Shown in pieces: positions 7,885-31,456 of a DNA stretch of 45,382 nucleotides (position 1 is its first letter; the number at the start of each line of letters is the position of its first letter). The notes under the pieces are model-generated. The model had not been told where the DNA came from and did no database searches. It saw nothing but the letters and a program-made list of their open reading frames with translations. The position numbers and the translations under genes were made by a program. The stretch is from an uncultured delta proteobacterium (GTDB taxonomy: Bacteria; Desulfobacterota; Desulfuromonadia; Desulfuromonadales; BM103): assembly GCA_963715335.1 (NCBI GenBank), contig CAVQRZ010000007.1, positions 1 through 45,382 of the forward strand, written 5' to 3'.

Positions 7885-9363
7885 TCAGTACAAGAAAGGC
7901 TCCAGGCGTACTGCTGGCAGCAGGCTTTTGCCACCGGTCAGGTATTCGTCGACGCAGCGGGCAACCTCTCTTCCCTCGCTGATCGCCCAGACCACCAGGC
8001 TCTGGCCCCGTCGGCAGTCGCCGGCGGCAAACACCCCCTCGACCGAGCTCATGCGGGATTTCGGGTCGGTTTTGATGTTGGAACGCAGGTCCGTTTCGCA
8101 GTCAATCTGCTTGAGCAGTTTCGATTGCGGGCCCAGATAGCCCATGGCCAGAAGGACCAGATCGCATTTCCATATCTGCCCACTCCCAGGGATCGGCTGC
8201 GGGCGGCCGTTGACCCATTCGACTTTGACGGTCTCGAGGGCGGAGACTTGCCTGTCCCTGCCGATGAAACGCGTAGTCATGATTTCATAAAAGACATCGC
8301 CACCCAGAACCTGCATCTCTTCGACCGAGGTGCTGACCCGCATGATGCGTGACCACTGTGGCCATGGGTTGCCCGCGCCACGTGTTCCCGGGGGCCGCTC
8401 GAGAAGCTCAAAGTTAACGACGCTGGCGGCACCCTGCCGCATCGAAGTGCCGATGCAATCCGAACCGGTATCGCCGCCGCCAATCACAATGACTTTTTTC
8501 CCTTTTGCGCTGATAGGCTGTTTTTTCGGGTGCAGGGCCGCTATGTTACCGTCTCCCCAGTTGGCGCGATTCTGCTGCGGTAAAAACTCCATCGCAAAAT
8601 GAATCCCGTCCAGGTCGCGTCCCTCGATGGGAAGATCGCGCGGCTCCTCGGCGCCCGTGGCGATAACCACCGCATCGAAGCCTGATTTGATCTCGTCAAA
8701 GGCCACATTCTTGCCGACTTCGCAGGAGTAACGGAATTCAATCCCTTCGGCGACAAGCTGGTCGACGCGGCGCTGAACCTTCTCTTTGCGCAGCTTGTAA
8801 TGAGGGATGCCGTACATCAACAGGCCGCCGGCACGGTCGGTTTTCTCAAGCACGGTGACGTGATGGCCAGCGCGGTTGAGCTGCTGGGCACAGGCCAAAC
8901 CGGCAGGACCGCTGCCGATAATGGCAACCCTCTTGTCGCTGCGATGGGGTGGCGGTTGAGGTACAATCCAGCCTTCCTCGAAGCCCTTGTCAATGATCGC
9001 AACTTCATGCAGCTTGATCGTTACCGCGGGCTCGTTGATGCCGAGGACGCATGACGTCTCGCACGGCGCCGGGCAGACCCGGCCGGTAAACTCCGGGAAG
9101 TTATTGGTGGCGTGCAGGGCCTTCAGGGCCTGTTCCCACTGGCTGCGGTAGACCAGGTCGTTCCATTCCGGGATCAGGTTGCCCAACGGGCAGCCGGACA
9201 TGCAGAAAGGTACGCCACAGTCCATGCAGCGAGAGGCCTGGGTCTTGACCTTCTCGTCGCTGGGATAATTATAGTGCTCATCATGATGCTGGAGCCGGGA
9301 GTTAACCGGCTGCAAGGTCTTGTCGCGACGGCCATGCTTTATAAATCCACGTGGATCACCCAT
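7885..9363 (-). CDS. gltD: Glutamate synthase small (beta) subunit
   Basis: [52 protein letters not shown]. Confidence 0.95.
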
Positions 9364-12300
9364 GTGCGGTCTCCTTCTCCTTCATAGCCTTGGTTGCCCG
9401 TTCGGTCAGCACCCGGCGGTACTCGCGTGGGTAAACGCGGACGAAGCGCGGTAGATAGTCGTCCCAGCTAGCGAGGATGTCTGCCGCGAGCGGCGAGTCA
9501 GTCAGTTGATGATGTCGGCTGATGATCTCATGCAACCACCTGGCGTCGTCGTCATCCGCGTCCATCTGTTCGAGGTCGATCATCGCCTGGTTGCAGCGGC
9601 GACGGAAGCGATTGTCTTCATCGAAAACGTAGGCGAAACCTCCGGACATGCCCGCAGCGAAATTACGCCCGGTGCGGCCCAGGCAGACCATGCGTCCGCC
9701 GGTCATGTATTCACAGCCATGGTCGCCGGTGCCTTCGACAACCGCGGTGGCGCCGGAATTCCGCACGCAGAAACGTTCTCCGGCCTTGCCGGCGAAGAAT
9801 ACTTCGCCGCCGGTTGCTCCGTAGAGCACGGTGTTGCCGACGATCGAGTTCTCATGCCAGGGGAAGGTGGCCCTGGCATCGGGGCGGATGATGATCCGTC
9901 CGCCGGCCATCCCCTTGCCGACGTAGTCATTGGCTTCGCCGATCAATGTCAAATCGATGCCGGGGGCCAGGAAGGCACCGAAACTCTGACCGGCAATACC
10001 GGTTGTCTTGATGGCGATGGTCCCTGCGGGAAGCCCTTCACGGCCGTGCTGCATGGCAACCTGCCCCGAGAGCATGGTGCCGAAGGTGCGGTTTGAGTTG
10101 CGGATCGGCATTTCGATCGTCACTCTTTCCTGCCGCTCCAAGGCCGGCGCGGCGCGTTGGATCAGCTGGTTGTCCAACTGGTTCTCCAGGCCGTGTTCCT
10201 GCCCCTGGACGCGCCGGGTGGCGACTTCGGCACCAACTTCGGGTTTGGCCAGGATCCGTGAGAAATCCAGGCCCTGGTTCTTCCAGTGCTTGATCGCGGC
10301 ATCCATTTCCAGGTACTGGGTCTGGCCGATCAATTCGTCGAGGGTCCGCACCCCCAGCTCGGCCATCAGCCCACGAACCTCTTCGGCGAGGAAGGTGAAG
10401 TAGTTGACCACGTGCTCCGGTTTGCCGGCGAACTTGCCGCGCAGGGCTTCGTCCTGGGTGGCAACCCCGACCGGGCAGGTGTTGAGGTGGCACTTGCGCA
10501 TCATGATGCAGCCGACGGTGACCAGGGCGACTGTGGCAAAAGCATATTCCTCGGCGCCGAGCATGGCGGCGATGATCACGTCGCGACCGGTGCGAAGCTG
10601 GCCGTCGGTCTGCACGATGATGCGGCCGCGCAAGTCGTTCAGCACCAGTGTCTGTTGGGTCTCCGCCAGGCCGATCTCCCACGGGATGCCGGCGTGCTTG
10701 ATCGAAGAGGTTGGCGAGGCGCCGGTGCCGCCGTCGTGGCCGGCGATAATGACGCGCTCCGCATGCCCCTTGCTGACTCCTGCGGCGACGGTGCCGACAC
10801 CGACTTCGCTGACCAGCTTGACGGTGATGTCAGCCCTGGGGTTGCAGTTTTTCAGGTCAAAGATCAGTTGGGCCAGGTCTTCAATCGAATAGATGTCGTG
10901 GTGCGGCGGCGGCGAGATCAGGGTGACCCCGGGGACGCTGAAGCGCAGTTCGCCGATATAGTCGCTGACTTTGTGTCCTGGCAGCTGGCCGCCTTCACCG
11001 GGCTTGGCGCCCTGGGCGATCTTGATCTGCAGCTCGTCGGCGTTGACCAGGTAATGCGGCGTGACGCCGAAGCGTCCGGAGGCCACCTGCTTGATGGCGC
11101 TGCGGCGCGAGTCGCCGTTGGTGTCCGGGGTAAACCGGCGCGGGTCTTCGCCACCTTCACCGGTATTCGACTTGCCGCCAATCCGGTTCATGGCGATAGC
11201 CAGGGTTTCATGGGCTTCGGTGGAGATCGAGCCGAGACTCATGGCGCCGGTACAGAACCGCTTGACTATGGCGCTGACCGGTTCGACCTCCTCCAGGGGG
11301 ACAGCCTGGTTCAGGTTCTTGAATTTGAAGAGCCCACGCAGCGTGTAGAGTTGCTCGCTCTGGTTGTCGACCAGGCTTGAATAGCGCTTGTAGTCATCTT
11401 GGTTGCCGGAACGTACGGCGTGTTGCAGCAGGGCGATCACCTCCGGGTTCATGAGGTGGGCCTCCCCTTCACGGCGCCAGGAGTACTCGGAGCCACGGTC
11501 CAGGTCGCGGTTGGGGTCCACCCGCTCGGTGTAGGCCTCGTGGTGGCGCATCAGGCTCTCGGTGGCGATCTCTTGCAGTCCCGCGCCGCCGATGCGACTG
11601 GCGGTGCCGGGGAAATATTTGGCGATAAATTCCTGGTCAAGGCCGACGGCTTCGAAGATCTGGGCACCGCAGTAGCTCTGCAGGGTGCTGATTCCCATCT
11701 TGGAGAAGACTTTGAGAAGACCCTTGCAGATCGCCTTGATGTAGTTCTTGGTGTAGTGGTGGACGATATCGGTCTCTTCGTCGGCCTGGTTGTTGCCGTC
11801 CAGTCCCGGAAGCATCCCCTGGCTGACCATATCCTGCAAGGTCTGGAAAGCAAGATAAGGATTGATCGCTGTCGCACCGTAGCCGACCAGCAGGGCAAAG
11901 TGGTGAACTTCCCGGGCTTCGCCGGTTTCGAGGACGAGTGAGCATTGGCTGCGCTTGCCGGCCCGGATCAGGTGGTGATGGATCGCCGAAAGAGCCAGCA
12001 GGGACGGGATGGGGGCCTTGCCCGGCGCTGACGCCACGATCTGACAGCACCAGGATGGTGCGACCGGCATCGACAGCCGCCTCGGCTTCGACAAACAGCT
12101 CGTCCAGGCGCTGCTCCAGAGCCTCGGAACCCTGGTCAGGTTCGAACAGGGTCTCCAGGGTGGTGCCACGGAAGCCGTCTATGTCACTGTGCCGCAGCTG
12201 TTCAAGCACATCGTTGGTAATCACCGGGTGATCGAGCTCAAGCATGCGACAGTGTTCCGGGCCAGGCATGAGGATGTTGCGCGCCGGGCCCAGGTACTGG

Positions 12301-30747: not shown

Positions 30748-31456
30748 TGTGGCCCTGCTGGTTACCTGCGAACATGCCGTCAATCATGTCCCGGAAAAGT
30801 GGTCGTCTCTGTTTGCCGACTGCCCGGAGGTGCTCGACTCTCACCGCGCCTTTGATCAGGGCGCTGCAGAGCTGGCACGGTCGATCGCCACCACCTTGTC
30901 CGCGCCCCTGTTTGAGGCGAAGCTGAGCCGGCTCCTGGTTGATCACAACCGCTCGCCGCATAATCGTTCGCTCTGGTCGGATTTCAGCCGGGATTTGCCC
31001 GCGCATGAGAAAACCTTGCTGCTTGATGAATACTACCGGCCATTTCGCGAGCGGACATCGCTGTGGATTGGCGAACGGCAGCTTGAAGGGAACAGGGTGA
31101 TCCACCTTTCCGTACACTCTTTTACTCCGGTCTTCGAAGGCAAGGTTCGCGATCTCGACATCGGTCTCCTCTATGACACAAACCGGTCTGACGAGGCATT
31201 CCTGGCCGATGTATGGAAGTCACGATTGATGGCCTGCAAACCGGAGCTCAAGGTGAGATTCAACGTCCCTTACCGTGGGCGCAGTGACTGCCACCTGACG
31301 GCCTATCGCGAACGGTACAAAAGCGGCGCCTACCAAGGCATGGAATTGGAGGTCAATCAGAACCTTGTGTCCACTCAATCGGGCCGGAAAGATTTAGCAA
31401 AGCTGATCGCAGGCAGTTTGCGTGACGTGCTGGTCGAGACTGCCTCGGACGAATAA
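30740..31456 (+). CDS. N-formylglutamate amidohydrolase-like (FGase) Zn hydrolase
   Basis: VTCEHA, SRLLVDHNRS, SVHSFTP, ELEVNQ; ATG at 30740 overlaps the previous stop. Confidence 0.85.
   Translation: MPDVALLVTCEHAVNHVPEKWSSLFADCPEVLDSHRAFDQGAAELARSIATTLSAPLFEAKLSRLLVDHNRSPHNRSLWSDFSRDLPAHEKTLLLDEYYRPFRERTSLWIGERQLEGNRVIHLSVHSFTPVFEGKVRDLDIGLLYDTNRSDEAFLADVWKSRLMACKPELKVRFNVPYRGRSDCHLTAYRERYKSGAYQGMELEVNQNLVSTQSGRKDLAKLIAGSLRDVLVETASDE

Follow-up and report, generated by a model that had tools for sequence, protein, structure and literature searches.

A RimK-RimB-M14 gene trio associated with Mg2+ and MscS-family channels in a 24-kb mosaic of gene cassettes

The alpha-L-glutamate ligase RimK and the retropepsin-like protease RimB of Pseudomonas form a pair that tags ribosomal protein S6 and also makes free poly-alpha-glutamate (PMC11957791; this and the other papers given by PMC number are drawn on in part). 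RimB trims the S6 tails and is also required for production of the free polymer by RimK, and chains of up to ~28-36 glutamates are formed in vitro, with a low level in vivo, and are broken down once ATP regeneration stops (PMC11957791). Here we describe a 24-kb stretch (positions 7885-31456) of a 45,382-nucleotide DNA (positions 1 to 45,382 of contig CAVQRZ010000007.1, hereafter the window) from an uncultured delta proteobacterium of the order Desulfuromonadales. Its core carries rimB and rimK genes that are adjacent and overlapping, as in Pseudomonas, and that retain the polyglutamate-binding residues and the DTG motif. Unlike in the Pseudomonas RimABK system, no gene for the phosphodiesterase RimA was seen (a Pfam scan of 39 window proteins showed no EAL domain), an M14-type zinc hydrolase gene and two channel genes follow in the operon, and S6 ends in alanine.

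Two further systems resemble parts of this core. The cyanophycin cycle follows the same logic, in that an ATP-dependent, non-ribosomal polymer made by CphA is opened by a cutter, cyanophycinase, and the dipeptides left by this enzyme are split by CphZ, an M14 enzyme of the same AstE/AspA annotation (PMC9974463). The RloABC system of P. aeruginosa combines a RimB-like retropepsin with an ATP-grasp partner and is experimentally tied to hypo-osmotic tolerance (PMC12239564); however, RloA is secreted and works with a seven-transmembrane inactive transglutaminase, whereas the window RimB has no hydrophobic leader.

Every gene named in the original prediction for this DNA (gltBD, three ligases, a GNAT, five hydrolases, CorA, MscS, MgtE, a USP and a P-type ATPase) was found where it had been placed. 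That prediction interpreted the entire stretch as one system for an (N-acyl-)glutamyl peptide or polymer, by comparison with the mammalian N-acetylaspartate/N-acetylaspartylglutamate (NAA/NAAG) cycle. Members of this cycle are NAT8L, RIMKLA/B, GCPII and ASPA, and the window too has a GNAT, RimK-type ligases, a zinc peptidase and an ASPA-fold enzyme. The window differs in that these parts travel apart, the GNAT is soluble and RimI/YpeA-like, the M20 enzyme is ArgE/DapE-like, and the M14 enzyme is far from ASPA. A neighbourhood of RLAN-RimK, GCS2, papain-like peptidase and FGase genes was reportedly described by Iyer et al. in 2009. The window cassette at 27328-31456 has the same make-up and order, and here stands behind mgtE.

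The RimK-RimB-M14 core and its channel neighbours

Genes were called by Pfam and NCBIfam scans of the long open reading frames (ORFs) of the window (39 and 36 proteins). The core cassette occupies the minus strand and runs from rimB (19630-20088; PF05618) through rimK (18728-19633; NF007764, 459 bits against a cut-off of 331), the M14 gene (17700-18731; PF24827) and the Mg2+/Co2+ channel gene corA (16538-17650; TIGR00383, 355 bits against a cut-off of 201) to mscK (14106-16547; PF00924 and PF21082). The last gene encodes a long, MscK-like mechanosensitive channel of the MscS family, which scores 236 bits with NF008438, under the cut-off of 991. Overlaps of 4 bases join rimB, rimK and the M14 gene.

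RimK aligns without gaps to its Pseudomonas counterpart (7QYR) and keeps all seven polyglutamate-binding residues named in PMC10092738 (S7, R8, S14, R64, S68, R189 and N262). RimB carries a D27-T-G retropepsin motif, and its best NCBIfam match is NF052261, the top of four retropepsin models, at 118 bits and thus under the cut-off of 200; the RimB model outscores the RloA models. The M14 protein has a zinc triad (H58-E61/H143), a catalytic E201 and an N109-R110 carboxylate clamp. An R-x-x-S-L-R segment (R182/S185/L186/R187) is invariant in 39 aligned rows, and no such arginine appears in this region of DoeB or 3CDX in the alignments. The predicted structure (pLDDT 91) gives TM scores of 0.77 with DoeB and 3CDX, 0.72 with CphZ, ~0.5 with AstE and 0.53 with human ASPA; being closer to DoeB and CphZ than to ASPA, the model does not favour the earlier suggestion of an aspartoacylase counterpart. 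Sequence identity is 16% to CphZ and 14% to human ASPA, and the scores lie under the cut-offs of all named families (DoeB 87 of 403, aspartoacylase 27 of 180 and AstE 23 of 306 bits). From its motifs and modelled fold the enzyme is assigned to the AstE/AspA superfamily, in a RimK-linked subfamily that stands apart from the named enzymes and comprises at least 8000 clusters at E <1e-30.

Within the order, 49 rimK loci were compared, one per genome and some shortened by contig ends. Nearby genes included rimB in 48, M14 in 41, mscK in 24 and corA in 23, and a CorA, MgtE, MgtC or MscS gene was present within 6 kb of rimK in 29. As a background rate, 3.2% of 13-kb windows placed at random on the remaining contigs of this genome contain such a gene.

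When metagenomes were scanned with an M14 alignment, 517 loci emerged, and the metagenome figures given here and below refer to the best 80. A channel gene resides within 6 kb in 39 of these 80, short loci included, and in 20 of the 33 flanked by 4 kb or more on each side (10 of 18 once loci are grouped at 70% identity). The 39 linked loci represent 28 different gene orders, with MscS neighbours that vary in length from less than 230 to more than 600 residues. Their CorA and MgtE neighbours are mostly 16-34% identical to those of the window. When grouped at 40% identity, the neighbours form 8 MscS, 5 CorA and 4 MgtE clusters that are spread over the whole M14 tree (a quick tree with uneven rows, in which linked loci are included at any length and unlinked ones only with 4-kb flanks; its 69 of 91 is not a rate). 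Because many channel clusters are scattered all over the tree, a single inherited block is excluded, and the pairing of trio and channels reflects repeated recruitment, or long retention with replacement. No GNAT, RLAN, GCS2 or gltB gene was found within 6 kb of M14 in any of the 80 loci, and an M20 gene in only 1 of them.

Plasmids show the same association. From a plasmid collection, 17 of 40 rimK records were taken, picked to span genera, and were subjected to a uniform BLAST screen, for which five of the six linked loci supplied reference proteins and in which the labels are those of NCBI. Loci with both rimK and M14, from two other phyla, are channel-linked in 6 of 7 cases, whereas loci with rimK alone are linked in none of 10. 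M14 genes without rimK likewise have no channel link in three well-flanked metagenome loci and two plasmid loci. For example, a Vibrio europaeus plasmid carries rimK-M14-rimB-mgtE-corA-mscS-usp in a single run, and the trio is accompanied by mscS and mgtE in Salinivibrio, by mscS and usp in V. nigripulchritudo (ectoine genes being 3 kb away), by a ZntB/CorA gene in Phaeobacter and by mscS in Acaryochloris. The 21 records of the collection with an M14 match come mostly from marine or salt-dwelling genera.

We conclude that the link between the trio and Mg2+ or MscS-family channels is real and reaches other phyla, and in this respect the association of ligase and hydrolase genes with channels in the original prediction was well founded (29/49, 20/33 and 6/7 loci in the three collections). 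No published description of the trio with such channels, or of the super-locus, was found in a literature search in which supplements, most subscription papers and one 2009 comparative paper were beyond reach. This agrees, within that scope, with the earlier statement that no account of one system was known. Treatment of the entire super-locus as one system finds no support here.

Several other gene arrangements were encountered around the trio. On a conjugative Vibrio plasmid (L284:1-2687), ectB, ectC and an aspartate kinase gene are located 3 kb from rimK-M14-rimB-mscS. In one genus, a GATase_4 gene (class II glutamine amidotransferase-like; L143:10482-11387, also L041, L137 and L140) directly precedes rimB-rimK, mostly in loci lacking M14, and it is possible that this gene is a replacement hydrolase where M14 is missing. 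In another class of the phylum, a 7TM transglutaminase-like gene of RloB type (L207:2864-4519) is divergent from rimB-rimK-M14.

The 24-kb stretch as a mosaic of cassettes

The stretch comprises four or more transcription units, distributed over both strands, rather than a single operon, and the catalytic motifs of the enzymes across it are intact. Besides the core, its cassettes are usp/P-type ATPase, GNAT-M20-mgtE and C39-RLAN-GCS2-FGase, all on the plus strand. The first comprises usp (20371-21207) and the gene for a type II cation P-type ATPase (21204-23891), which falls below the MgtA cut-off (TIGR01524, 347 against 611 bits) and scores higher with type IIA/IIC models, also under their cut-offs. 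The second begins with the GNAT acetyltransferase gene (24019-24531) and continues with an ArgE/DapE-like M20 deacylase gene (24528-25661) and the Mg2+ channel gene mgtE (25768-27132; TIGR00400, 283 bits against a cut-off of 233). The third encodes a C39-like thiol peptidase (27328-28068), an RLAN-RimK ATP-grasp ligase (28046-29518), a GCS2 ligase (29515-30747) and an FGase-like amidohydrolase (30740-31456), after which a gene for a small DMT protein follows on the same strand. Overlaps of 4 bases also occur between usp and the ATPase gene, GNAT and M20, and RLAN and GCS2.

A sigma-70-like site precedes gnat (23940-23967, plus strand) and is conserved in relatives, and a conserved TATAAT box (27259-27264, plus strand) precedes the C39 operon. 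All 7 upstream regions compared, that of the window among them, contain the box, which is kept also in relatives whose C39 cassette stands alone; the GNAT-M20 pair and the C39 cassette thus each have a separate conserved promoter-like site. Over the entire window, the totals of promoter and terminator scans are near chance level. The tRNA and Rfam scans of the window gave no matches, and no M-box or Mg-sensor RNA at the Rfam gathering score, and its GC profile has no shift of island type. Two RNA sequencing runs contained 0.06 of the words, and the habitats assigned to sequencing runs (marine sediment, aquatic and freshwater, with shares of 0.24-0.38) are too weak a signal for use.

To follow the cassettes through the class, 251 genomes (126 of the window's order and 125 of the other orders) were searched with three marker proteins. 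GNAT was found in 125, RimK in 59 and RLAN-RimK in 30; with these queries the other orders gave GNAT in 53 genomes and neither ligase in any. In the 126 genomes of the order, co-occurrence was close to expectation, with an observed 38 versus an expected 33.7 genomes for rimK-GNAT, 19 versus 14.0 for rimK-RLAN and 23 versus 17.1 for GNAT-RLAN, figures that count kin as if they were independent, which they are not. Genomes with both partners have them no more than 40 kb apart in 5 of 38 cases for rimK-GNAT, 6 of 19 for rimK-RLAN (a further case spans a contig break) and 3 of 23 for GNAT-RLAN. These are lower bounds, as many assemblies are fragmented and the partners share one contig in only 12, 12 and 8 cases. 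All three enzyme cassettes are present in 12 of the 251 genomes and are contiguous only in two of them, both of the window's genus (G000 and G002); a third member of this genus (G004) has the same gene order split over two contigs.

Because the cassettes are distributed independently, are rarely contiguous and have their own promoter-like sites, the 24-kb stretch is a genus-level mosaic of separate cassettes, and a single pathway is ruled against. In the proposed check of relatives' gene neighbourhoods, the blocks were mostly scattered and rimB-rimK-M14 recurred with its channels. The usp/P-type ATPase pair, which the original prediction placed next to the channel genes, does not separate rimB from gnat in G002 and G004, where ATPase orthologues occur on other contigs. 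In the window's species the pair is an insertion at this site. An orthologue of the window's ATPase resides 7 kb from the GNAT gene in another family member (G011:C15:25352-28018), and the ATPase-GNAT pairing may be older than the genus.

The mosaic is non-random, in that the same cassettes meet in other orders in further families of the order. In G065, C39-RLAN-GCS2-FGase directly precedes rimB-rimK-M14-corA-mscK, with contig ends joined by a 99-base exact overlap, and three genomes (L113, L122 and G109) have the arrangement GNAT-M20-mgtE-mgtC-C39-RLAN-GCS2-FGase. FGase is followed by mscK in 5 genomes, and mgtC precedes C39 in 4. Weaker evidence comes from four genomes (G058, G120, G122 and G125) in which the rimK and RLAN cassettes are separated by 18-38 kb filled with unrelated metabolic genes (nitrate reductase, pyruvate dehydrogenase, FeoB and CO dehydrogenase-family).

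The GNAT-M20 pair has a wide distribution of its own. M20 is beside GNAT in 77 of 80 loci and in all 20 loci of other orders, and none of these 20 has a ligase or Mg channel gene beside the pair. Since mgtE comes next after M20 in 15 of the 62 loci that extend 1.5 kb or more downstream, it is an optional third gene of the unit. The GNAT has no hydrophobic stretch, as expected for a soluble protein, is RimI/YpeA-like with YpeA as its nearest solved relative, and retrieved only generic GNAT clusters in an ESM Atlas search. Together with the M20 enzyme it is likely, by sequence resemblance, to form an acetylating and deacetylating pair with its own substrate. Similarly, C39-RLAN-GCS2-FGase is a self-contained, widespread cassette. 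The 30 RLAN loci of the order include C39 in 29, GCS2 in 28 and FGase in 27, and the same gene order occurs in other classes of the phylum. Its leaning towards MgtE, MgtC or MscK genes within 6 kb is weaker (11 of 30 loci in the order and 3 of 11 in other classes).

Additional cassettes join this group. A five-gene set with two D-Ala-D-Ala-ligase-like ATP-grasp genes, a GNAT, a KamA-type radical SAM gene and a histone-deacetylase-like gene (L131:1612-7040; also L068, L077 and L115) joins GNAT-M20-mgtE or rimK-corA-mscK in several genomes and is another candidate small-amide pathway. A DUF2126/circularly permuted ATP-grasp set is the second extra amide-ligase cassette. The glnA gene resides between mgtE and C39 in two loci (L051, 3760-5088, and L052) and right behind M20 in L103. 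A GNAT-RLAN-RimK fusion of ~650 residues (L180:9238-11229; also L181-L183, L202 and L203) occurs without GCS2 and is usually followed by a SET-domain gene. Between rimB and gnat, two relatives carry a ~90-base sequence that is repeated two or three times (L055:9480-10010 and L036:13440-13875).

Beyond mscK, the minus strand carries the glutamate synthase genes gltB (large subunit; 9356-13920, Pfam/NCBIfam) and gltD (small subunit; 7885-9363, TIGR01317, 678 bits against a cut-off of 448). The window's gltB, the only copy found in the genome, reads as three ORFs owing to one extra base near 12020 and another near 13383. The gene is one ORF of 1521 residues in G002, and both extra bases are absent from related-strain contigs from independent runs (12021 in X1; 13383 in X2 and X5). 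A third break lies nearby, in a response regulator gene (7160-7672) that encodes 170 residues against 227 in relatives, with an extra base at ~7234 beside a G run. For these reasons, the gltB frameshifts and the response-regulator break are probably assembly errors, judging from these sequence comparisons. Of the 49 rimK loci of the order, 4 have gltB within 6 kb, and gltB trails mscK only within this family (f1), where two versions are ~88% and ~47% identical to the window's. It is a neighbour at the family level, outside the conserved core.

A Hyf-like (group 4) hydrogenase operon (32025-42895) lies on the other flank, between the FGase and DMT genes and a Na/Ca exchanger gene, and has two divergent HTH genes plus PTS-EIIA genes upstream. 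In G002 and G004 the exchanger gene is located within 1.6 kb after FGase, and hence the hydrogenase block looks inserted in the window. The exchanger gene (43057-44031) has copies of 97-99% identity at the starts of two other contigs (C38 and C8), which reflect duplicated assembly or a strain mixture (assembly contamination 6.87%). Na/Ca exchangers recur close to the cassettes in further families.

A putative poly-alpha-glutamate cycle and its alternatives

We give about even credence to a model in which RimK and RimB make, and RimB and M14 recycle, free poly-alpha-glutamate for Mg2+ and osmotic balance, in concert with CorA and the MscK-like channel. RimK and RimB would polymerize cytoplasmic glutamate, RimB would cut the chains internally, and M14 might free glutamate from short ends, by analogy with CphZ acting on cyanophycin dipeptides. 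The product would be an osmotically quiet polyanion that locks up glutamate and holds Mg2+ and K+ as salinity falls. CorA or MgtE would import Mg2+, MscS would vent turgor, and glutamate would be provided by gltBD, together with glnA in some relatives. Other small amides are the probable products of the GNAT-M20-mgtE and C39-RLAN-GCS2-FGase cassettes, which probably gather here through a response to the same conditions. Polymer formation is known only from Pseudomonas; we infer the role of M14, the binding of ions and the timing of the cycle.

The portions of two studies drawn on here point to low or shifting salinity as the direction of this response. Genes assigned to rimK (K05844), corA (K03284) and a mechanosensitive channel (K03282) are commoner in brackish than in marine sister genomes (PMC10219603), and in Photobacterium a rimK is up 52-fold and an mgtE up 5-fold at 1% versus 3% NaCl (PMC10308900). 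The compatible-solute role originally envisaged, which implies a solute for high salt, runs counter to this direction.

Several observations weigh against a free-polymer cycle. Wild-type Pseudomonas holds little free polymer (PMC11957791), and deletion of rimB in P. aeruginosa, from an operon without an M14 gene, left hypo-osmotic growth unchanged in the part of PMC12239564 drawn on. The salt-regulated Photobacterium rimK may or may not be an M14-linked copy. In the order, 20 of 49 loci lack a channel gene within 6 kb, as do 13 of the 33 well-flanked loci from metagenomes; the 80 metagenome loci were ranked with a query from a linked cassette and over-represent its close kin, and the background rate comes from one genome. 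The support is gene neighbourhood throughout, and the M14 substrate is a guess from the modelled fold and the conserved arginines. Finally, among the 70 of 246 S6 genes fetched, S6 ends in EE in 11 of 24 rimK-bearing versus 3 of 26 rimK-free genomes of the order (p 0.011, kin not being independent), an excess that fits continued ribosome tagging.

Such tagging offers a different explanation of the core, which we regard as a serious possibility although rather unlikely. RimK, RimB and M14 might add glutamate tails to S6 or further proteins and remove them again, with the channels sharing a low-salt or low-Mg2+ response and no free polymer being made. Ribosomes are the main Mg2+ sink, RimK is a genuine member of the S6-glutamate ligase family with its binding residues kept, and PMC10219603, as far as drawn on, interprets the brackish enrichment as protein acidification. 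However, the need for a final Glu on S6 is implied in the discussion of PMC11957791, and S6 of this genome ends ...TTEEA, which weakens a purely ribosomal role, as well as the condition named by the original prediction as its own refutation, that the ligases only modify S6. A final Glu taken alone is no different between rimK-bearing and rimK-free genomes of the order (16 of 24 versus 12 of 26, p 0.17) and is missing from 8 of the 24 with rimK, whereas it is present in 18 of 20 genomes of orders without detected rimK. In addition, the S6 systems of E. coli and Pseudomonas need no M14 and have no adjoining channels. Ribosome tagging may persist in some families, and for this genome it is doubtful.

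Alternatively, RimK might glutamylate the adjacent channels at their cytoplasmic tails and so adjust gating, and RimB and M14 would remove the added residues. The window MscK-like protein ends ...PPDE, and a C-terminal Glu is found in 9 of 24 such proteins from the order, yet among metagenome and plasmid neighbours only 2 of 39 MscS, 0 of 38 CorA and 0 of 18 MgtE proteins have one, and the channel types are interchangeable between loci. Channel C-termini are accordingly unsupported as RimK acceptors, and we consider this explanation highly unlikely. The prospect that the clustering lacks functional meaning is equally slim. Accessory genes of coastal bacteria could pile up at the same insertion spots and travel together, as the unrelated genes in the 18-38-kb gaps and the occurrence of the cassette on plasmids might suggest, but the same three channel families, represented by unrelated subfamilies, turn up in 28 gene orders, in many cases inside the operon or with overlaps, and are absent beside rimK lacking M14. 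Least probable is a single NAAG-like pathway across the whole 24 kb, in which the GNAT would N-acetylate, the three ligases would add glutamate and the five hydrolases would recycle a compatible solute. The full gene order minus usp/P-type ATPase is kept in G002 and largely in G004, cassette pairs meet again in other families, and GNAT-RLAN co-occurrence is slightly over expectation. Against this stand the separate promoter-like sites, the 2 of 12 contiguous genomes, the near absence of M20, GNAT, RLAN and GCS2 genes from the metagenome M14 loci, and the soluble, YpeA-related GNAT. Because the cassettes are mostly scattered and GNAT carriers often lack either ligase (53 of the 125 belong to orders in which neither was detected), the reading is unsupported, including its proposed chain from GNAT to RimK, and is already largely refuted by distribution.

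Implications for coastal and brackish bacteria

A broader version of the free-polymer cycle can be proposed tentatively. In coastal and brackish bacteria of several phyla, RimK-RimB-M14 might constitute an unrecognised storage-polymer cycle, in which glutamate is polymerized on dilution and unzipped when salt returns. Polymerization would lower turgor without nitrogen loss and would trap Mg2+ imported by the co-encoded CorA or MgtE. The Desulfuromonadales core could then act as a hub around which further cassettes for amide synthesis, Mg2+ genes and genes for glutamate supply have gathered as islands.

If the free-polymer reading is true, the link between trio and channels would provide a concrete condition, salinity down-shift or low Mg2+, for the free poly-alpha-glutamate made by RimK. 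The M14 hydrolase would be a candidate for the missing enzyme, and a very large M14 subfamily would gain a function. The 24-kb arrangement matters less, and serves as a handy all-in-one example from one genus.

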